Below, in pieces: positions 4,191 to 20,318 of a stretch of DNA of 39,105 bases. The position numbers and the translations under genes are program-made. Under the pieces are notes generated by a model that was not told the origin of the DNA, searched no databases, and worked only from the letters and a program-made list of their open reading frames with translations. The first letter of the stretch is position 1. The number at the start of each line of letters is the position of its first letter. The stretch covers positions 1 to 39,105 of the forward strand of contig JBPOHH010000777.1 in assembly GCA_052035765.1 (NCBI GenBank). Direction: 5' to 3'. This stretch comes from Bacteroidota bacterium (GTDB lineage: Bacteria; Bacteroidota; Ignavibacteria; Kapaibacteriales; UBA961).

Positions 4191-4976
4191 TTACCGTGCG
4201 ATATGTATTTTCTTTGACTGAATATTACCATCTAATTGTCTGCATAACACAAAATATACTCCGTTTGCAAGTGATGAAGTATTTAAATGCTCAACTGTCA
4301 ACGGTTTATCGTTTTTCCAAATTACATTGGACATCGCATCAAAGATACTCATATATACGGGCACATTCGAATGTATGCTAATACTTTCTTCATTATAGCG
4401 AAGAGTAATGTCGTCTTCATGCTTATCGAATTCTTCCTCAACTTTTACCGGTGGAAGTGAATACCAAATCACCAGATTATAGTTTCTCAGTCCCTCATTA
4501 GTAATCATTATACTTTTTCTTGTATCATCGAGTGCAAAAGAATATATCGTGCCTCCGAGTCGGTCCATAATTCTTGCAGAGTCCACATATTGTGGAAACG
4601 GGTATTCCCATTTAAAAAAGAAAGGGCTTTTTCGCTCCGAATAGTCGTTAACGTTGATAGTATATTCTAATGAGAATTTGTTTGTCTCAGGTATTCTTCG
4701 ATAATTTCTATAACTCAATAAATTTTCAACAAGTAATGCTGCATGTATTGGACTCGGTGCCGGCGGATGTCCAGGCAAAAACTGTTCTCCCAGTTTTAAA
4801 TCTAAAGAATCAGTTGCTCTTTCATCTACTCCTGCAACCATCGTAACTTCTGCTCCGCTATCATCACCTGCGATTATCTTAAATTCTACTTTTCTCTGTC
4901 CTAACAGAGTAACTATATTGCTAATCATGAAGATGGCAGTTATCCACCATATTCCATTTCGTTGATTTACATTCAC
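4191..4976 (-). CDS. secreted hypothetical protein with T9SS C-terminal sorting domain (261 aa)
   Basis: I moved the start from the track's TTG (5042) to the in-frame GTG at 4974-4976. That GTG is preceded by AGGAG with an 8-nt spacer. The longer ORF would read through the terminator hairpin of the upstream gene. The resulting N-terminus, MNVNQRNGIWWITAIFMISNIVTLLGQ, looks like a signal peptide or signal anchor. The C-terminus (...VYMSIFDAMSNVIWKNDKPLTVEHLNTSSLANGVYFVLCRQLDGNIQSKKIHIAR) fits the T9SS CTD pattern. Confidence 0.65.
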   Translation of the reverse strand: MNVNQRNGIWWITAIFMISNIVTLLGQRKVEFKIIAGDDSGAEVTMVAGVDERATDSLDLKLGEQFLPGHPPAPSPIHAALLVENLLSYRNYRRIPETNKFSLEYTINVNDYSERKSPFFFKWEYPFPQYVDSARIMDRLGGTIYSFALDDTRKSIMITNEGLRNYNLVIWYSLPPVKVEEEFDKHEDDITLRYNEESISIHSNVPVYMSIFDAMSNVIWKNDKPLTVEHLNTSSLANGVYFVLCRQLDGNIQSKKIHIAR

Positions 4977-4996
4977 GTTGTATACTCCTGATTGAG

Positions 4997-5034
4997 AATA
5001 AAAAAGGGCAACTGAGTGAACTCTGTTGCCCTTT
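4997..5034 (-). terminator. rho-independent terminator downstream of the 1040-aa gene
   Basis: The minus strand reads AAGGGCAAC-agagttcactca-GTTGCCCTT followed by TTTTTTATT: a 9-bp GC-containing stem, a 12-nt loop and a U-tract. It lies about 30 nt after the stop of ORF 5062..8184. Confidence 0.75.
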
Positions 5035-5061
5035 AATTTCAAATACTATATTTCCGAGTTA

Positions 5062-8000
5062 TTATCGAACAACCGACAGAACTGAATTTACAGTAAACTC
5101 GCCAGCTACAACTCTTACAGTATACTGACCACTTGGTAAGGTTGTTGTAGTAAATGGAACATCATATCCACCGGCATTTTTATATTCTTGTACCAAGGTT
5201 GCAACTTCAACACCAAGCATGTTATACACTTTAAGAGTAACGAAGCTATTTTGAGGTACAGTATATCGAACATTTGTAGAACCGGTAGCTGGATTTGGAA
5301 CAGCTTCGACTGAGAACCCAGCAACAGCAACATCAGATTTCAATATTTTAACGGATTGAATTTCTGAATTTGAAATTATAACAGTTGTATTTTGATTGTT
5401 AATCACTCCAAGTGTTTTACCTGTAATTGGATCTACAACTGTGTAATTCGATGTTGGATTTTGAATGGATACTTCAACCGGATATTGTACACCTTGGAAT
5501 TTTACGGTTGTAGCATTAGAATTTTCTGCTTTTGCATTATTTCCAAATCTAACATCAAACATTTCTGTCGGAGGAGTTGGAGGTAATTCAAATTGAGAAA
5601 CGTTTGAATTGCTTGGAGCAAAATACAATTCTGATTGATGTTGACCATTATCAACAATACTAAGCTTATCACTTGAATTCACAATGTTTTGTTTCTCAAC
5701 ATTAACTTCATTTTGATTGAATTTGATACCGGCTGCTTTTAATTTTAAATAGCCTTTATCATCTACCTTAATCCAATATCCAAGACCGGGTTGAATTTCA
5801 GATGACTCAACATATCCTCTGTCTGTTTTATATCCCCAGACACTTGTTGGCTTTGTAGTAGGAATTTGAGTACCTGATGGATCGAAGTTGATGTCACTTA
5901 CATTAACAACAGTACTTAAGCTTCCAATTGTGTTCCATCCTTGTGTCAATAGAACAGGATTAATCGATGCGTTAATATTTGAAATTCTTGTTCCTGCAAT
6001 TTTTGTATCAATTACTTTACCGTAACGAACGAAATAGCCGTAACCAACTTCCAAAAATTCTTGATTTTGATATGAATTTGCATAGAATCTGAATGGTTGA
6101 CCACCTTCAGAATTTGGATATACAACAGTGTAGCTTGAATTAGATGGTTTAACCGGGAGGGAAAGTAAATTCCAACCTGTATTTATTACCGGGAATGAAA
6201 CTACTTTCGGTAAAGTATATTCAATGATAAATGAAGTAATACGAGCATCACGGATGGTATAGTATTGACTTGTTGGGCTGCCACCACCTGTTGCATTTCT
6301 CATGTCAACACTAAACTTCGGTCCTACCAAACCATTGATGGTATCTCTCATAAAGAGTTGTGCACCAACTGGGAAATCTTGTGTATCCCAGCTTACGACA
6401 ATCGGATAGTTAGATGCACCATCAGCATTAAATCTACAGAGGAATGATATTGTTGTATCTGTTGAATTATCACGAATATCACGTGACACTGATCTTGTAC
6501 TTACTACGCCTTCTGATTCGATTGGAATTTCGCTATATCCATAAGGAGCTATTTCGTTGCCGAATGCATCTTTAACATTTGTATTAAACCAACGAGCGTA
6601 GAATCCAACCGGTACGTTTCTATAATAATCTTCACCAAACAAGCTATCAGGACCATCTGTTGCTCTATGTCCTGTTCCGAACACAAGATCATTGCTTTCT
6701 CCGCTTGTACCCTTAGAATTCTTCACGTTAATTCTGATACCATAATCTCTTCCTTGTGCAGGGCTAGCGTATGGCTCAAGAGGATTGCGGAAGAAAATAA
6801 AGACTACTTTTAATCTGACAGGGGAAATAACCGCTGAATATGAAGTAAAGGTAATATAGCCAGTGTACACACCTGCATATTCACCATTGCTTCTCAAGTT
6901 ATCTGTATTACAAATAATTCTAAGACCAAGCGGTGCTTGCGCATCTTTAATGTTATTTCTAGAGTCTTTAAGGTTGGGAGGAACTGGTCCATTAATACCG
7001 TTATCAATATAATCAATCATTCCCTCGCGTGTTTTAACACGTGTAGCTGATGGATTATATCCATTCGGTAAACTTCTAAACATTAACCATGGTTCATTTG
7101 ATTGAGCTAAAATATTAGTTAATCGACTTCTTGAAGTAAGATTAATTACCTGAATATCTCGTGTCCCTTCTTTACCGGTATTTGAAGCTGAGTCAACAAC
7201 AATTGGTCTTACAACTTCCCAAAGTGATCCATCAGGAGTGTTATCATCCTGTTTAACTTCATTATTTGTACCACCAATCACATCTCTAAATCCAATTGCA
7301 GGATTTTCACCCATATTCACCCATATAATACCCGGACGACTCGGATAATCTGGAAAAGCATCTGATGTAACTGTTACACCGGCTAAACCAATTGTTGGAT
7401 TATTTTCCAATCTATATAATTTATTTCCGTAAGGATTAGTAGCATCACCTTGTGACACCTTAGGGAATGGATCATCTACACCAACTCTAAAATCTCTGTC
7501 TGCATCTCCATAACGGAGTGAATCATTCGAAATATACAACGGCGTTTTATCTGAGCCGCTATATGTTGTAGACTGATTAACAAGTTGTGACTTTGTAAGA
7601 GTTACTCTGAATTTCAAATACAGCAAAGGTGCAAAAGTACCTGATTGATCTGTTAAAGGTAATCTTCTTGTAGAAGTACCTGTAACCATCATTCTTCTAC
7701 CATATTTAGTTTCAGCATCAGGTGCACCTGTTAAATAGACTCTAAATCTCTTATCATCTGCAACATCATCCCATTCAAAATTGAAACCCTTAGCAAGTGC
7801 GTTTGTATCACCTCTCTGTGGTCCCAAAACCTGAACTCCTGAAGCTTGCATAACACGACCATCATACATCACTATGAAGGAGAAATTATAGATAGGAAAT
7901 CCACCATATCTTTTATCTGTGACCAATTCAGTTTCTGCCCACAGATTTTGAATATAAACGGGTACGACAATTTCCCGCTCTTTGATATCTGAATATCCTA

Positions 8001-8184
8001 ACCATATTCTACCATCCGAATACAAATTATCTAGGTATCCGTTATTCGTACCTGTTAGTGATAATTTTGGTAAATCGGCCTTTTGTAACTGACCAAATAC
8101 TTGACTCGATGGAGATATACCCATCACCATCGCGAACAATATTGCTAGCAATATGTTCTTCCTTTGTAAAAACCACTCTTGCAT
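5062..8184 (-). CDS. large secreted protein, T9SS cargo (1040 aa), N-terminal cohesin-like module, no recognisable catalytic motif
   Basis: ATG start with GGAGAG 6 nt upstream. The signal peptide is MQEWFLQRKNILLAILFAMVMGISPSSQVFGQ. The C-terminal about 85 aa (VPNPATGSTNVRYTVPQNSFVTLKVYNMLGVEVATLVQEYKNAGGYDVPFTTTTLPSGQYTVRVVAGEFTVNSVLSVVR) is a textbook T9SS type-A CTD pattern. Confidence 0.85.
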   Translation of the reverse strand: MQEWFLQRKNILLAILFAMVMGISPSSQVFGQLQKADLPKLSLTGTNNGYLDNLYSDGRIWLGYSDIKEREIVVPVYIQNLWAETELVTDKRYGGFPIYNFSFIVMYDGRVMQASGVQVLGPQRGDTNALAKGFNFEWDDVADDKRFRVYLTGAPDAETKYGRRMMVTGTSTRRLPLTDQSGTFAPLLYLKFRVTLTKSQLVNQSTTYSGSDKTPLYISNDSLRYGDADRDFRVGVDDPFPKVSQGDATNPYGNKLYRLENNPTIGLAGVTVTSDAFPDYPSRPGIIWVNMGENPAIGFRDVIGGTNNEVKQDDNTPDGSLWEVVRPIVVDSASNTGKEGTRDIQVINLTSRSRLTNILAQSNEPWLMFRSLPNGYNPSATRVKTREGMIDYIDNGINGPVPPNLKDSRNNIKDAQAPLGLRIICNTDNLRSNGEYAGVYTGYITFTSYSAVISPVRLKVVFIFFRNPLEPYASPAQGRDYGIRINVKNSKGTSGESNDLVFGTGHRATDGPDSLFGEDYYRNVPVGFYARWFNTNVKDAFGNEIAPYGYSEIPIESEGVVSTRSVSRDIRDNSTDTTISFLCRFNADGASNYPIVVSWDTQDFPVGAQLFMRDTINGLVGPKFSVDMRNATGGGSPTSQYYTIRDARITSFIIEYTLPKVVSFPVINTGWNLLSLPVKPSNSSYTVVYPNSEGGQPFRFYANSYQNQEFLEVGYGYFVRYGKVIDTKIAGTRISNINASINPVLLTQGWNTIGSLSTVVNVSDINFDPSGTQIPTTKPTSVWGYKTDRGYVESSEIQPGLGYWIKVDDKGYLKLKAAGIKFNQNEVNVEKQNIVNSSDKLSIVDNGQHQSELYFAPSNSNVSQFELPPTPPTEMFDVRFGNNAKAENSNATTVKFQGVQYPVEVSIQNPTSNYTVVDPITGKTLGVINNQNTTVIISNSEIQSVKILKSDVAVAGFSVEAVPNPATGSTNVRYTVPQNSFVTLKVYNMLGVEVATLVQEYKNAGGYDVPFTTTTLPSGQYTVRVVAGEFTVNSVLSVVR

Positions 8185-8211
8185 AATGCTCTCCTCTGAA
8201 TAATAAGAAGA

Positions 8212-9447
8212 TTATTTAATATATTTGATTAACTTTTTTGTTTCTTTATTTTGATTTACATGCATTACTTCTAAAATCGAAACTCCGTTGGAGAATAATT
8301 CTTTGGGAACAATTACTGTCTGTTCAAAATATTTTTTGCTCCACTGAACTTCGCCTATTACATTATAAAGTAAAATTTGGGAGATATTTCCCTCTTCACA
8401 AGTAAGAATAAGTGAACCTTCCCACTCATTTATTCTCATAACTTCATTATCACTGTCATCCAGGTTATTCTTTATATTTACACCAACTATTATTCCTTCT
8501 AATTCAACTTGAACACTATCAGTACTTACAGTATTAACGCAATTGCAAGAAGTCAGTTTAATTACATTTACAAAAATCTTAACTGTATCATTATTATACT
8601 TTTTCCTTAGAATCTGTAAGGTAAAAGCTGGCAGATTAACATTTATACTGTCTTTCCAAGAAACACCAATAATCAAGTTATCATTTTTTATATAGCTTGT
8701 ATCTACTGTCAAACCTGTTTGAACTGATTCTATATTTCTAATACTAAGAATATCTTTTTTGTCGATAATTAATGCTAGTTCTACATTCTTAGTTTTTACG
8801 ATATCTTCATTATTCAGATAAATTGCTATTTGCCCAACACTATCTTCTTTTGATAGAGTGACTTTATCTTTTTTAATGGTCGTTTCAAACTTTTTTCCAC
8901 TGTTTTTTGCAATATTTGCTATCAGCAGTAAATTTTTTCCGGCAATGATTGGTGGTAATTTTGAAAAATCATAATAAGCAGGTATAAACTCTATCAAATT
9001 AACAACTGTAGTATCTGAACAATCATTTAAATATCTTCCTGATAAAGCTATTAGTGGTTGTTTTCCCTTAAGAAACTTATTATTTGTAAAGAATGCTCCC
9101 GATATCCACACTTCTCCTGCTACAGTTTTATTCATGGTCAGCACAGCATCTGATCCTGAGTTTTGCAACGGAGCAGATAATGTCCCTGAAGCCAACATTT
9201 GGTCTAGTTGTATCTTTTTCTCATTAAATCCAAGGTATAAATCAAATCCTACGATACTGTCAGCAGCATATATTTCATCTGTCTGTATATATATCTGAAA
9301 TAGTTTATTTCCACATACATCAATATCAGATAATGTTTTTATTTCTACATTCAAAGTACTTTGAGCATGAACCTCTAGTCTGATACTGCTGAGTATTAAA
9401 ATACCCAGCAGTATACAGAATAGATTTTTTTTGTCAAAGTTTCTCAC
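8212..9447 (-). CDS. secreted protein with two cohesin-like modules and a divergent T9SS-type C-terminal tail (411 aa)
   Basis: The GTG start at 9445-9447 directly abuts the TAA stop of the upstream gene (TAAGTG), which suggests translational coupling. The signal peptide is RNFDKKNLFCILLGILILSSIRLEVHAQ. Cohesin-like pattern: LFQIYIQTDEIYAADSIVGFDLYLGFNEKKIQLDQMLASG...AGEVWISGAFF...GKQPLIALSGRY. C-terminus: ILLYNVIGEVQWSKKYFEQTVIVPKELFSNGVSILEVMHV. The gene is very AT-rich and the protein is rich in K, N and I. Confidence 0.7.
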   Translation of the reverse strand: MRNFDKKNLFCILLGILILSSIRLEVHAQSTLNVEIKTLSDIDVCGNKLFQIYIQTDEIYAADSIVGFDLYLGFNEKKIQLDQMLASGTLSAPLQNSGSDAVLTMNKTVAGEVWISGAFFTNNKFLKGKQPLIALSGRYLNDCSDTTVVNLIEFIPAYYDFSKLPPIIAGKNLLLIANIAKNSGKKFETTIKKDKVTLSKEDSVGQIAIYLNNEDIVKTKNVELALIIDKKDILSIRNIESVQTGLTVDTSYIKNDNLIIGVSWKDSINVNLPAFTLQILRKKYNNDTVKIFVNVIKLTSCNCVNTVSTDSVQVELEGIIVGVNIKNNLDDSDNEVMRINEWEGSLILTCEEGNISQILLYNVIGEVQWSKKYFEQTVIVPKELFSNGVSILEVMHVNQNKETKKLIKYIK

Positions 9448-18300: not shown

Positions 18301-19503
18301 ATCCACTAATTGGCGACGTGAATCCGAATTAGAAACCGCCGGCTCCGCAACAGCTCTATCCAACTCACTCAATGATATTACATTCTGATCTATCGTACTA
18401 CCATCACTTTCGGTCAATGCAGGATTTTTATCTTGAAACACTTGTCTAGATATGTTCAAACCAGTAGTATCTGGATACACCCCTGCTCCTCGTGGAGCTT
18501 GCAACAGCTGCAATGCACCAGCACGGTATCTTGCAATATTATTCGTGAACGTACAGTTCAACAACCATGTTCTTTCAGAAAAACTTGTTAATGCTCCACC
18601 AGCTCCATTGGTCAACTTATTCATCTCATCATTCAATTGAAGAATTGAAGACTGTGCTGCCAACGCCACACCGGCTGTATCATACAAAAACTTCTTATCA
18701 ACTGTAGTGTCTTTTCTGAAATCCTTAAAATCTACGTCTCTAAAGAATGCGGCTCTCGCTCCCGGCATCACTATAATATGCCCCCATTCACGAGAATAAT
18801 CGTTGATTGGCTGACCTCTAAAGACAATTCTTCTCGTGGCATTGTTTACTGGAATATTTGGTGTAACACCAAACAACCTTCTCCAAGGCTGGAAACGAAT
18901 AATGTCATCTGTAGACCACAATCTTGCCGAAGAAAACATAATCGCTCTCATTGGCGAAATCACTATCTTACCTGTTGACGGAACAGGCAAACTTGCACCA
19001 CTTTGCAAGTTTTCCAATCTTTTTGTAACAGTATCAAGCACTACATTGAAAATGTAATTGTATTTCCCGTAGTTACTCGGACTGCTAAAGTTACCAGGAT
19101 AACTTAGTGTACCCTGAATTGTAGCTTCGTTATAATTAGTTTCCTGCACTACTGATGAACTGAGAAAATATCTCATATCATTATACTCCAGCAAACCAAT
19201 CGAAGTTGGCGATGTACCGTTATAAGCAGCACTCAGCCGACTATCAGCTATAATGCGACCGCCCACGGAATCAATCAACCGACCATTATCGAAGAAAATG
19301 ACCTCTGTCCCCGGCTCAATGATCAGTGTCCCAGCTACAGTGTATGTACCACTTATTTGATACACACTATCCTGTAAAAATATCCGCACCTCATTAGGGG
19401 CTATTCGTCCTGCAACCTGCACACGAGGTTTTTGCGCAAACCCCGTACTTATACATAGGGCGAACGCAATGATTAGAGTGCTTAAACGAAACCAACGTTG
19501 CAT
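12340..19503 (-). CDS. giant secreted beta-helix adhesin-like protein (2387 aa): Pmp-type repeats, cadherin-like/He_PIG-like Ig region, shared ELPPxPP module, T9SS CTD
   Basis: ATG start with GGAGG 4 nt upstream. The signal peptide is MQRWFRLSTLIIAFALCISTGFAQ. There are about 10 GGA(I/L/V/M) motifs alternating with FxxN motifs. KWLKINPVSGLLYGTPG (nt ~13713-13766) matches the 'putative Ig' / dystroglycan-type cadherin-like pattern. The CTD is SPNPFNNSTSVVMGVPTSSNVNVEVYDAMGAKVATLANNFYNAGRYELTWNAKSEQGTDLAAGVYFVKMTAGAFSTTQRLMLVK. Confidence 0.9.
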   Translation of the reverse strand: MQRWFRLSTLIIAFALCISTGFAQKPRVQVAGRIAPNEVRIFLQDSVYQISGTYTVAGTLIIEPGTEVIFFDNGRLIDSVGGRIIADSRLSAAYNGTSPTSIGLLEYNDMRYFLSSSVVQETNYNEATIQGTLSYPGNFSSPSNYGKYNYIFNVVLDTVTKRLENLQSGASLPVPSTGKIVISPMRAIMFSSARLWSTDDIIRFQPWRRLFGVTPNIPVNNATRRIVFRGQPINDYSREWGHIIVMPGARAAFFRDVDFKDFRKDTTVDKKFLYDTAGVALAAQSSILQLNDEMNKLTNGAGGALTSFSERTWLLNCTFTNNIARYRAGALQLLQAPRGAGVYPDTTGLNISRQVFQDKNPALTESDGSTIDQNVISLSELDRAVAEPAVSNSDSRRQLVDDARLAVYHGRVRQLTFDNNRALLSDVDTLRINGNRVVTDTNRVAVLRSRSWNNEAFGGAMLIAGRELDENRKIEIGLGVNDSIRTAAGPFGFVSFGSKDFITFTNNYALNRQSSPNSRGAKGGALYIGKYTSLVINGSFRNNFTETPYQINSNSEQYSLGGAVFHENTLGRLQLRGHPSLATEFLNNRAGSGGAVYCDGNSDPRPSPIIGGSDVTNPRIRDYGRRMSFENNTAIAHGGAIYTKRNLTVYGAGGFINDLPLAQAYGTGFSVRFANNSAGYTGGAIAVHLPSIEPPVPIEQRYIRLVRAEFKDNTVGQLAPSASLEIVKQVAGGGAIYSKNGDLNVIKGVEFNNNRAFNSNGGAIAMVHPRTSSRRFFISDADALTLLPNGTAIGYTSNDSLYDNRRKTVVAADVRSLTRFYNNVAEPNPDSRLQGSGTTQMSANSIDIKRFHPGFLRDVLGNGLRENGVGLGGAIFILDSITPQRRFRADSIFLNRVRIQNNTAYTGSAVYSDNYDLKIVLTRCLVTSNKSTSPVGRTQDVIGGPMVGSDNPASSDLAGATFYGEIIGPIPWTSFNIAANSIYDNDARFIIRLPDAPNSKSVLSGGTGIGFGGVDTLRGNYWGRTEGNVSTIIKTSQPVPSPNGGVQETFFIQGNGKTHMQFLRTGRTDDTQQGPFEQNGFPGYVYTAIQIGKIPDTLLMAGRIYDFFDKGTDMKTADYSFRRMSPIEDFAVGIPPKLQRYTNATKASNNKYVRRLTRDPFSTDSLNYATGQENVLWRQLRRLQTEFAPDYRTGELSHPIGYPLFLEARAKYQGEDIYQNNDDPTTPNSSTFFVINDSTGDYIRINMSQFTDMQTLNNDGVYPKEILRGRVDFVLDSVERTGTSARVRRTYEGLYNFGGTETLLPRLADSAFNEDISAFGGRRYELSMSPALNKRGVLYGNGQAVVYSNRPSMPASLASGNDTIVSYFAGERWNSLPVRPGDYVRVISRTVLWRDGVDTAIDKGLGFRIGTSTPPPVFTGNKIALENPKVSPQYFSSYKNKIYLSEDEKYNKAPNPNVRTRDSIFVITAIDSNLMYDPRWAMDIDAAGNIRQQDTIFKRYNQLELSWYPLYVGQFGDTIRDVNSNKLTALRRWIKADTLWPTRGVPNTRALNAPYYGARGVIELKGQPSNPYVVPGGEWMEVVAKNYAPTVRTVDALKGIALKPADSAFITDTLSKFIYLYPSYFHAQRYDDTLLSAPRNARFLNQDTLNFGLTDSSVYRFMIIVTDSFPVFSRIERPSANCQLGTQSLLVANVTDKLRFYVDINTDDEKEDSIAANNEGWDFKYGKTSYGFLSKSLRNVPGDTAIDELYQLRPNWMADRYMYVEGSDTTQDVFANDFTSRGVMNIRIPRAQALNLLKPGSVADQANGGLNTDTIITLVANDGHTGLSYLTRRVFVNISPTITTTTLENAKEDMDYNVDLLNRPRKIAYSDPNFGQAQNFRLLYANDPDTTIAKDPCFKEAGEWDVRDIKKTPKWLKINPVSGLLYGTPGVKDAPHTSALGNPDTVTVVLTDAGGLTDVKVLILNTDSTNHAPKLLAAPVVRCIGQGDTYLDTLLAQDLDLFREKPVWDNSSKFDPILETIKLTVISPAGTNLVIEPATITGTKSDTLQKVVIKSNGPLTINAADIKDGKVTIKVQITDDEITKILEYKLNVSEATDFIVPVTVANNDVRGAFQVLYFGTAKNATTGEKTGEIGKLDSNYCEYELPPVPPRDVFDARWTIALTNGIIRNIFPQAVPKDNNQAIYKARFQAGFLGGNGNSAYPVTITWDRSDVPSRTDATKNPSGASWWIADNISNGQFFKYNMNTGIGRNSATIVDYSATGSKSTVRVNKDDIDGFIITYDFTSDVEEQPVTGMPVSFELSEASPNPFNNSTSVVMGVPTSSNVNVEVYDAMGAKVATLANNFYNAGRYELTWNAKSEQGTDLAAGVYFVKMTAGAFSTTQRLMLVK
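16770..18610 (-). repeat. array of Pmp-type (GGAI / FxxN) parallel beta-helix repeats within the giant CDS
   Basis: GGA motifs: GGALTSF, GGAMLIAG, GGALYIGK, GGAVFHEN, GGAVYCDG, GGAIYTKR, GGAIAVHL, GGAIYSKN, GGAIAMVH, GGAIFILD. These are interleaved with FTNNIA, FDNNRA, FTNNYA, FRNNFT, FLNNRA, FENNTA, FANNSA, FKDNTV, FNNNRA, FYNNVA and IQNNTA. Confidence 0.75.
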
Positions 19504-19592
19504 AATACCTCCGTTTGGATGAATAAAATTGTAATAATTTAACTTTATATTTTTAACTTTTTATATCTATTGTAAGGACTAAACGGAGGACA

Positions 19593-20318
19593 CTACTCAA
19601 CAATCATGCCAAGTCTCGTGAGTCCGCTCTTCGACTCTCCAATGTATTCCATTGATTCTCCGCGAAGAATTTCCCTGAAAAACTTCTCGGCCTTCTCTTT
19701 ATTTCCAGCCTTTTCATAGTTTAACGCTGCATACAATTTGTACTTGTCCTTCATTGTAGTTTGTAGGGTCTGCTGTGCTGCTTTATCATAGTAATCACCA
19801 GCATTTAAGTGGTCTTTTTGCTCTTCTTTGCAAATTGCCAACCCAATTAATGCTCCAACAGCAACCTCTACCGATGCACTTCCTTGCGCTTTCTCGAAGT
19901 ACCCCGCCGCTTCAGCATGCTTTTTTAGTGAGATCAGCGAGTTACCTGCATACAATGCAGCTACTTTACCATTTTCAGTACTACCATATTGCTCTACAAT
20001 TCCTTGTAGTCCTATTAAGGGGGTATCGCGTATTATCTTTGTTGCATCGCCACTTAGCGCTTTTGCGTACTCACCGCTTTCATACATTGTACGTACTCTT
20101 GCTAATGCTGCTGATGCTTCTTTCTCTTTCTCGTTTTTCGATTTGTTGTAAAAAACGACAGCAATAATGGCAACTACGACAATTCCGAGTAGACCCAATC
20201 CTACCTTTAGTTTATTTTTTAAATCTGTGGTCGATACAAGAGTAGTCGCCAGCTCTTTTTCTTGATAACCGCCAACTATTTCGTTGTCTGTATTGCTCAT
20301 TTCATCTTGGATAGCCAT
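19593..20318 (-). CDS. YfgM-like single-pass membrane protein with TPR-like periplasmic domain
   Basis: ATG start. It has an acidic N-terminus, one TM helix (LGLLGIVVVAIIAVVFY) and then helical A/Y/G-rich TPR-like repeats (YESGEYAKAL, AALYAGNSLISLKKHAEAAGYFEKA, AGDYYDKAA, LYAALNYEKAGNKEKAEKFF). Confidence 0.6.
   Translation of the reverse strand: MAIQDEMSNTDNEIVGGYQEKELATTLVSTTDLKNKLKVGLGLLGIVVVAIIAVVFYNKSKNEKEKEASAALARVRTMYESGEYAKALSGDATKIIRDTPLIGLQGIVEQYGSTENGKVAALYAGNSLISLKKHAEAAGYFEKAQGSASVEVAVGALIGLAICKEEQKDHLNAGDYYDKAAQQTLQTTMKDKYKLYAALNYEKAGNKEKAEKFFREILRGESMEYIGESKSGLTRLGMIVE

Follow-up and report, generated by a model that had tools for sequence, protein, structure and literature searches.

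The region described here, positions 7585-10545 of a 39,105-nucleotide window (the whole stretch of DNA analysed, contig JBPOHH010000777.1 of the Bacteroidota assembly GCA_052035765.1), covers three adjoining minus-strand genes: the N-terminus of P4, P3 and the C-terminal third of P2. They belong to a single-copy five-gene operon (P1 to P5, all on the minus strand) for cargo proteins of the type IX secretion system (T9SS), which is conserved in Kapabacteria-type bacteria. P2 (9448..12324) is composed of a signal peptide, two NIDO-like modules, a cryptic dockerin, a beta-sandwich and a T9SS type A C-terminal sorting domain (CTD). P3 (8212..9447), a protein of 411 amino acids (aa) with a GTG start, consists of a signal peptide, two probable cohesin modules and a CTD. 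P4 (5062..8184) is a T9SS cargo protein of 1040 aa. The flanking genes are given as context: P1 (12340..19503; 2387 aa, with Chlam_PMP repeats and a CTD) is the first gene of the operon and P5 (4191..5042), a 283-aa open reading frame (ORF), the last cargo gene. The start of P5 may lie downstream of the start of this ORF. For P2 the longest ORF has 958 aa and begins with TTG; an alternative ATG at 12249 gives 933 aa and is the likelier start, since the closest homologues are 933 aa long. Residue numbers of P2 are those of the 958-aa ORF.

An earlier note, made from the sequence alone, had described cohesin-like patterns in P2, P3 and P4 and a dockerin-like pair in P2, and had suggested a possible scaffold built from them. 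All strings quoted in it were found on the minus strand where it had placed them. In P4 these are EIVVPVYIQ (residues 71-79) and APLLYLKFRVTL (185-196), in P3 LFQIYIQ (49-55) and PLIALSGRY (131-139), and in P2 WGDGDADLS (595-603, 10516-10542) and ANGQDAAWILRYIAGGISSLPW (716-737, 10114-10179), followed by the third cohesin-like stretch at about 755-865. On the whole, its observation was partly confirmed and its interpretation partly supported.

Scans with Pfam and NCBIfam gave matches to NIDO, FlgD_ig and Por_Secre_tail in P2. The CTD of this protein (9451..9714, minus strand) reached 27 bits with TIGR04183 (cut-off 23) and 27.7 bits with PF18962. TIGR04183 was above the NCBIfam cut-off in P1, P2 and P4 and slightly under it in P5. 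The tail of P3 matched the solved CTD 8glk_D with an expectation value (E) of 1.3e-6 when the family profile was compared with the PDB, and PF18962 recognised it in 12 of 26 orthologues. All five operon proteins carry a T9SS CTD, P5 narrowly missing the curated cut-offs, and the same scans detected no glycoside hydrolase domain in any of the five. The non-cellulosomal T9SS setting assumed in the earlier note therefore holds. In the N-terminal two thirds of P2 (10570-12249) the Pfam NIDO matches were weak (22.6 bits). Compared with most orthologues (620-720 aa), P2 proteins of the window's family (920-933 aa) have an N-terminus extended by about 280 aa, which is consistent with two NIDO-like modules rather than one. 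A further module of the type 'ELPPxPP...' before the CTD is common to P1 and P4 (YELPPVPP at 13054-13077 and FELPPTPP at about 5569-5592) and possibly P5 (LPGHPP at 4761-4778), and is absent from P2 and P3; the complex may have in this module a second element of assembly.

The dockerin module of P2 (10114..10542, minus strand, residues 595-737) is formed by two F-hand repeats, each interrupted by an insert. Both Ca2+ loops are split between loop positions 7 and 8. In the first loop DGDADLS (597-603) represents positions 1-7 and VTVND (619-623) positions 8-12, followed by the helix ARLVLRWLI; insert 1 (QIRTRKHAGMIQNRF; 15 aa, 10471..10515) lies between the two parts. In the second loop DVNHNGR (655-661) and ANGQD (716-720) take the corresponding positions, separated by insert 2 (54 aa, 10180..10341) and followed by the helix AAWILRYIAG and by LPW. 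With 15 and 54 aa the inserts are as unusually long as had been remarked before. Ca-ligand residues at positions 1, 3, 5, 9 and 12 are D597, D599, D601, T620 and D623 in loop 1 and D655, N657, N659, N717 and D720 in loop 2. Thus, the module has the tandem F-hand repeats of a type I dockerin, with the ligand pattern and a helix after each loop; contiguous 12-residue Ca2+ loops are missing, owing to the inserts.

At least 285 proteins share the conserved last 370 residues of P2. In 72 aligned homologues W-G-D-G-D, Q, V-T and D are invariant in the first repeat, and H-x-D-x-N-H-x-G-R, D-A and L-P-W in the second. The invariant residues include D597, D599, V619, T620, D623, D655, N657, G660, R661 and D720, so that ligand positions 1, 3 and 12 of both loops and position 9 of loop 1 do not vary; position 5 is conserved. 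In an AlphaFold2 model of residues 590-958, calculated from the 72-sequence alignment (mean predicted local distance difference test score, pLDDT, 77; predicted template modelling score, pTM, 0.63), helices at 621-636 and 718-728 correspond to the expected dockerin helices 1 and 3, with pLDDT values of 50-85.

A direct test with the Pfam families PF00963 (Cohesin) and PF00404 (Dockerin_1), as had been proposed, gave no match for the window, neither with whole proteins nor with cut-out segments and even at E<=10. Dockerin_1 also failed to recognise the natural P2 of 21 orthologues. In contrast, the dockerin was detected after in silico excision of residues 604-618 and 662-715, which leaves two 12-residue loops in a 79-aa sequence. 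This sequence scored 27.6 bits (E 3.4e-6; gathering cut-off 22.9 bits) and covered positions 2-56 of the 57-position profile, in agreement with the earlier call of a dockerin-like pair. Two hand-spliced homologues scored 23.4 and 27.4 bits. With phmmer the excised sequence matched the dockerins of Clostridium thermocellum Cel9 and CelS in the PDB (E 3-5e-6), the trailing LP[YW] being aligned as well. A fixed motif rule for excision was then applied to eight further orthologues from three family-level lineages. Dockerin_1 was found in all eight, with E from 1.3e-8 to 8.6e-3, and five were above the cut-off; with the window included, six of the nine rule-spliced sequences passed. Two out-of-register excisions of the window sequence, in which similar lengths were removed, gave no match at E<=10. 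For the correctly excised sequence no other Pfam family came near Dockerin_1, EF-hand_7 and FG-GAP following at E>0.04. These comparisons strongly support the identification of a genuine type-I-like dockerin in P2, which is missed by Pfam because each Ca2+ loop is split by a conserved insert.

The motif rule parsed 14 of 21 orthologues, and every one of these has an insert in both loops. Insert 1 has a length of 15-17 aa with conserved H, Q and R. Insert 2 varies from 12 to 72 aa; the most distant lineage has 12-13 aa and the others have 36-72 aa, and in a looser survey of 94 homologues the spacing was longer still in some. Both loop inserts are ancestral. When 1.84 billion representative proteins were searched by phmmer, the dockerin region as query yielded 88 clusters, nearly all of them P2-type proteins of 600-870 aa, and the insert-bearing dockerin type appears confined to P2-like proteins. 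One protein, P0155 (1772 aa), carries an insert-bearing dockerin at residues 1426-1572, unlike the usual P2 architecture of 600-930 aa. Within the window's genome neither a second copy of the P2 dockerin nor other split dockerins were found by regular-expression searches and by searches with a hidden Markov model (HMM) of spliced dockerins.

Dockerins with an interrupted loop are known from Ruminococcus flavefaciens. The second Ca2+ loop contains a 12-residue insert in the ScaA dockerin and a 13-residue insert in the X-module-dockerin (XDoc) of CttA; both still bind Ca2+ and a cohesin, and the inserts of CttA buttress the adjoining X-module (PMC5934362, PMC4266597). P2 resembles the ScaA-ScaB cohesin 5 and CttA XDoc-ScaE (type III) pairs in having a dockerin with an insert in a Ca2+ loop, and the second insert of the most distant P2 lineage, with 12-13 residues, is like those of ScaA and CttA. 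In contrast to these, P2 has inserts in both loops, of 15-17 aa and 12-72 aa, without detectable sequence relation to the inserts of ScaA and CttA. The setting differs as well: the host is a Gram-negative member of the Kapabacteria, anchoring is by T9SS instead of sortase, and no cellulases are involved.

P3 contains two modules (module 1, 8977..9351, about residues 33-157; module 2, 8494..8895, about residues 185-318; minus strand) which were recognised by profile-profile comparison and by matches of orthologues. In 26 P3 orthologues, scanned at E<=1, PF00963 (cut-off 24.1 bits, profile length 139) matched eight, with a best E of 2.6e-9. In the orthologue L068 both modules were matched and the score was 37.8 bits; the match of L069 (25.5 bits) spans positions 2-137 of the 139. 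In L050, an orthologue of the same family as the window, residues 70-155 scored 22.6 bits (E 1.3e-4); this segment is equivalent to module 1 of the window, which itself finds L050 with E 7e-13 (phmmer). Module 2 of L060 scored 17.4 bits. Besides the CTD, the Pfam families recurring in P3 orthologues were Cohesin and one domain of unknown function (DUF) in two members. By hhalign, with queries headed by the window sequence and the most distant lineage excluded, the modules were compared with a profile of 43 bona fide cohesin domains. Module 1 gave 61% and E 8.2e-5 over 96 collinear columns and module 2 gave 74% and E 2.8e-5 over 99 columns, whereas unrelated controls (CTDs, dockerin region) gave E 0.14-0.5. 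Both modules are thus homologous to bona fide cohesins at the profile level, as had been claimed for the two copies in the 411-aa protein. They are also related to each other: hhalign gave E 2.8e-4, and an iterated HMM from module 1 of the window matched module 2 of one orthologue (E 1.5e-5). Neither the most distant lineage nor P4 was reached by this HMM.

The AlphaFold2 model of P3 has a mean pLDDT of 66, with about 80-88 for module 2 and 40-60 for module 1; 9 and 10 strands were modelled. Its best Foldseek match was the cohesin plus fibronectin type III (FN3) construct 2w1n (E 1.6e-8); TM-scores were low and the alignment was a multi-domain one. P3 is very probably a two-cohesin protein, and its identity as two very divergent cohesins with signal peptide and T9SS sorting domain is well supported by these sequence comparisons. 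It is the fastest-evolving gene of the operon, with 12-21% identity across the class versus 26-49% for P2, and the window section 8001-10000 around it has a G+C content of 0.31 versus 0.35-0.42 in the neighbouring sections.

For the N-terminus of P4 (7585..8007, minus strand, about residues 60-200) the relation to cohesins is more indirect. Compared with module 1 of P3, hhalign gave 89% and E 2.1e-6, 63% and E 7e-5 with an independently iterated profile, and E 2e-4 with the most distant lineage removed. Directly against bona fide cohesins the result was marginal (E 1.5e-3 to 2.5e-3). At E<=1 PF00963 matched 7 of 28 P4 N-termini weakly, with at best 17.9 bits. The matches always align Pfam positions of about 22-60 with residues of about 87-143, and a weak match in this same place occurs in 10 of 20 genomes. 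The cohesin call made earlier for the N-terminus of the 1040-aa protein is thus probably right: we consider it likely that the module is a cohesin of the same subfamily as those of P3, an identity which is moderately supported by the profile comparisons.

These results have to be weighed against chance or convergence, that is, unrelated beta-sandwiches together with generic DxDxDG Ca2+ loops. Several null results fit such an explanation. No window protein had a direct Pfam match to Cohesin or Dockerin_1, the profile searches of the PDB found no convincing cohesin, and hhalign with the first, shallow alignments showed no relation between any module pair; the relations were detectable only after 20 more operons had been added to the alignments. 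However, the excised dockerin passed the cut-off in six of nine rule-spliced and in both hand-spliced sequences and failed out of register, and Dockerin_1 was far ahead of any competing family. Cohesin is the only non-CTD family recurring in the P3 and P4 orthologues, besides one or two sporadic DUF matches, and the profile-profile comparisons gave E of 1e-5 to 1e-6 versus 0.1-0.5 for the controls. Chance is therefore a very improbable explanation of the whole, and for the dockerin and P3 it is largely refuted.

The third cohesin-like module of the earlier note, in the 933-aa protein, found no support as a cohesin. The segment between dockerin and CTD of P2 (9730..10062, minus strand, residues of about 750-870) is a confidently modelled beta-sandwich (AlphaFold2 pLDDT >90, about 10 strands) without a sequence link to cohesins. 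With hhalign it gave E 0.14-0.2 against cohesins and the P3 modules, which is the level of the negative controls, and none of 21 orthologues matched Pfam Cohesin here. The resemblance is one of fold only and is shared with tandems of immunoglobulin-like (Ig) and FN3 domains. In the Foldseek list of the P2 model 2w1n was second (E 1.3e-7), the Ig-CTD pair of Porphyromonas gingivalis RgpB (5ag8) third, and the isolated cohesin 2o4e (E 6.9e-4) was present among many Ig/FN3 tandems. Since these searches were made with whole multi-domain models, which gave low TM-scores and generic Ig/FN3 tandems, they do not settle the fold of the single module.

It is conceivable that this sandwich is nevertheless a cryptic cohesin and that the P2 dockerin pairs with it, within the chain or by head-to-tail self-association. 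Self-association has been proposed for proteins which carry both cohesin and dockerin modules. The Foldseek ranks of 2w1n and 2o4e are in line with this, dockerin, sandwich and CTD form one inherited cassette in all 114 aligned homologues, and the pTM of the three-module model hints at some fixed packing. On the other hand, the missing Pfam matches and the control-level hhalign values speak against it, as do the many Ig/FN3 tandems scoring alike in Foldseek and the length of about 105 residues, compared with 139 positions of the Pfam cohesin profile. The cassette is explained equally well by a support of the X-module type, and we regard self-pairing as improbable. Inheritance in one cassette with an insert-bearing dockerin makes a supporting or spacing role likelier, and we favour a support similar to an X-module, or a spacer before the CTD, over a fourth cohesin. 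Unlike the X-module of CttA, which is N-terminal to its dockerin, the sandwich of P2 is C-terminal. For the P2 module only, the position of a beta-sandwich directly before the T9SS sorting domain is like that in RgpB; unlike there, about 37 other proteins of the genome have a true cohesin directly before the CTD.

The dockerin and cohesin genes are inherited together. In each of 20 relatives 12 kb around the P2 orthologue were fetched, and the order P1-P2-P3-P4-P5 was kept in all 20. The C-terminus of P1 is followed there by P2 with 620-920 aa, P3 with 250-460 aa, P4 with 970-1090 aa and P5 with 250-340 aa. All contigs found through exact protein look-up had the same order. A locus search with peptide patterns from the P3 alignment returned only two loci, the patterns being too specific. 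Among the 201 genomes of the class, 62 have a P2 orthologue, one each; within the same order it is present in 20 of 22 genomes, and it also occurs in two further families. The relatives are metagenome-assembled genomes (Candidatus Kapaibacterium, Kapabacteria, 'Chlorobi bacterium' OLB6, OLB7, NICIL-2), and their copies are annotated in public records as 'hypothetical protein' or 'T9SS type A sorting domain-containing protein'. In the window the stop of P2 and the GTG start of P3 abut (9445-9450); L051, L052, L053, L055 and L057 are among the relatives with overlapping or touching P2/P3 and P3/P4 junctions, and in relatives generally the genes overlap or are only shortly spaced. Such junctions suggest translational coupling of the dockerin and cohesin proteins, and adjoining genes in all 20 relatives strongly support a functional link. 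A scan for sigma-70 promoters and terminators remained at chance level and was uninformative on transcription units. The block extends further in the window (4191-20318) and at the loci L011-L017 and L050-L069, where a TPR_21/YfgM-like gene precedes P1 to P5; P1 has about 2200-2700 aa with PMP repeats, and a Pyr_redox_2 flavoprotein often follows P5.

Cohesins are not restricted to the operon. Pfam Cohesin matched eight places on other contigs of the window's genome (G000), and iterated HMM searches extended these true cohesins to 37 proteins. A profile of this family matched 21 PDB cohesins, with a best E of 1.8e-5 over 119 of 141 positions. The distance from the end of the cohesin to the C-terminus was 57-100 residues, mostly 80-90, in all 30 near-full-length cases. 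The approximately 37 cohesins are thus placed directly ahead of a presumed T9SS CTD; after them a conserved C..GG.RL motif was noticed. Examples are G000:C246:1707-2009 (L001), C184:7093-7386 (L002) and C550:3297-3446 (L003), with others on C47, C46 and C527. The cohesins of the operon belong to a separate subfamily and not to that of the pre-CTD cohesins. Dockerins are rare in comparison. The genome has two Pfam dockerin matches at E<=1, one of them above the cut-off, which results in a tally of about 40 cohesins versus three dockerin-like modules. Among the 20 relatives 0-12 cohesin matches per genome (at least one in 19) are opposed to 0-4 dockerin matches. In 11 of them no dockerin is detectable by Pfam at E<=0.1, so that the P2 dockerin may be their only one. 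A second dockerin-like module was observed at G000:C236:4688-4906 (L010), in a conserved protein of about 500 aa (PGDADNNGLIDTRDF...ADCDGSGDVTYTDIL). Its counterparts are ORFs of about 470-510 aa in the relatives G117, G051, G020, G166, G061 and G031. In this type the repeats are separated by a long linker or insert; Pfam detected it in 6 of 10 same-order relatives searched.

This imbalance of the modules leads to the strongest rival explanation, according to which the modules are real and the dockerin and cohesins of the operon are not partners. The cohesins would then be general surface or pre-CTD beta-sandwiches, and the P2 dockerin either a Ca2+-stabilised structural element or a hub which docks onto some of the approximately 37 other cohesin-CTD cargo proteins. 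The bona fide cohesins before the C-terminus of 37 proteins, the two Pfam dockerins of the genome, the similar ratio in the relatives and the separate CTD of each operon protein all agree with it, and cohesins that do not bind dockerins would weaken the pairing within the operon. Against this, P3 has the layout of an anchoring scaffoldin, dockerin and cohesin genes adjoin in 20 of 20 genomes, often with abutting or overlapping codons, and the operon cohesins are a subfamily apart from the pre-CTD cohesins. Taken together, we judge the absence of pairing to be rather unlikely. The hub function, as a kind of 'inverted cellulosome' on the T9SS surface in which cohesin is the tag of dozens of cargo proteins, is a doubtful idea. 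If true, the five-protein operon would be a surface platform organising cohesin-tagged cargo, in reverse of the cellulosome logic of many dockerins and few cohesins.

With a probability slightly better than even, we assume instead that operon partners form a cohesin-dockerin complex on the cell surface, in which the dockerin of P2 is predicted to bind a cohesin of P3 or P4, or of both. The five proteins would cross the inner membrane via Sec and the outer membrane via T9SS. The CTDs would then be removed or exchanged for a surface anchor and the proteins fixed to the cell surface. CTD removal and surface fixation are known for T9SS type A cargo. The Ca2+-loaded dockerin of P2 would plug into a cohesin of P3 and/or P4, and a defined complex on the cell surface would result, in which the NIDO-domain protein P2 is tied to its partners from the operon. 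The beta-sandwich of P2 would more likely be a support contacted by the loop inserts, comparable to CttA XDoc, or a pre-CTD spacer. Since the two dockerin repeats of P2 differ, a single binding mode may be likelier than the dual mode of type I dockerins.

Several points weigh against such a complex. The operon has a ratio of one dockerin to three cohesins, and each protein has its own CTD, so that docking is not needed for surface attachment. About 37 pre-CTD cohesins versus two Pfam dockerins indicate that cohesins may have a dockerin-independent role in this lineage. Neither P3 nor P4 of the window matched Pfam Cohesin, even at E<=10, and the cohesin call for the window rests on orthologues, on profile-profile E of 1e-4 to 1e-5 and on models of moderate confidence. 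Iterated HMM searches seeded from the true cohesins of the genome did not reach the window modules, and PDB profile searches with family alignments of P3, P2 and P4 gave only CTD/FlgD-type matches and one cohesin at E 0.98. In the dockerin, a hydrophobic residue (L, F, M or V) takes the place of Gly at position 6 of loop 1. Furthermore, Ca2+ binding by loops with inserts of 15-54 residues is a prediction.

Some features of the proposed complex are comparable to known systems. With two cohesins and an anchor only, P3 has the layout of the anchoring scaffoldins (R. flavefaciens ScaE; C. thermocellum SdbA, OlpB type): it is small and secreted, combines cohesins with an anchor signal and is encoded beside a dockerin-bearing protein. 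Unlike in these, the anchor is a T9SS type A CTD and not an SLH domain or sortase motif, the window copies of the cohesins escape Pfam through their strong divergence, and the partner P2 has its own anchor. A use of cohesin and dockerin outside cellulose degradation is shared with the modules of the Clostridium perfringens glycoside hydrolase family 84 toxin complex (PDB 2w1n, 2o4e), of which 2w1n was the top Foldseek match of the P3 model and the second of the P2 model. In C. perfringens, which is Gram-positive, the modules connect secreted glycoside hydrolases, whereas here non-enzymatic T9SS cargo (NIDO, PMP-repeat) in a fixed operon is concerned.

Cohesin-dockerin pairs are the best-known modular protein connectors of bacteria. 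Both modules occur outside cellulosomes; to our knowledge, the pairs have been characterised almost only in Gram-positive cellulosomes. For bacteria of the Ignavibacteria or Kapabacteria type, no publication was found that describes operons of T9SS cargo with cohesins and dockerins. Three things are new: both Ca2+ loops of a dockerin carry conserved inserts and Pfam does not see it, the cohesins make up a subfamily of strong divergence, and the modules are fixed in a five-gene operon which all related genomes examined have kept. Standard annotation misses one dockerin and three cohesins of a single-copy operon from an uncultured class. Provided that the modules do bind, excision of loop inserts before HMM scoring would be a simple recipe for finding other hidden dockerins. 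The striking surplus of cohesins over dockerins in these genomes calls for an explanation. In general, the gene block suggests a non-cellulolytic surface complex of proteins predicted to snap together. If the modules bind, dockerins would be shown to tolerate large inserts in both Ca2+ loops, and a conserved non-enzymatic surface complex of the Kapabacteria would be defined.

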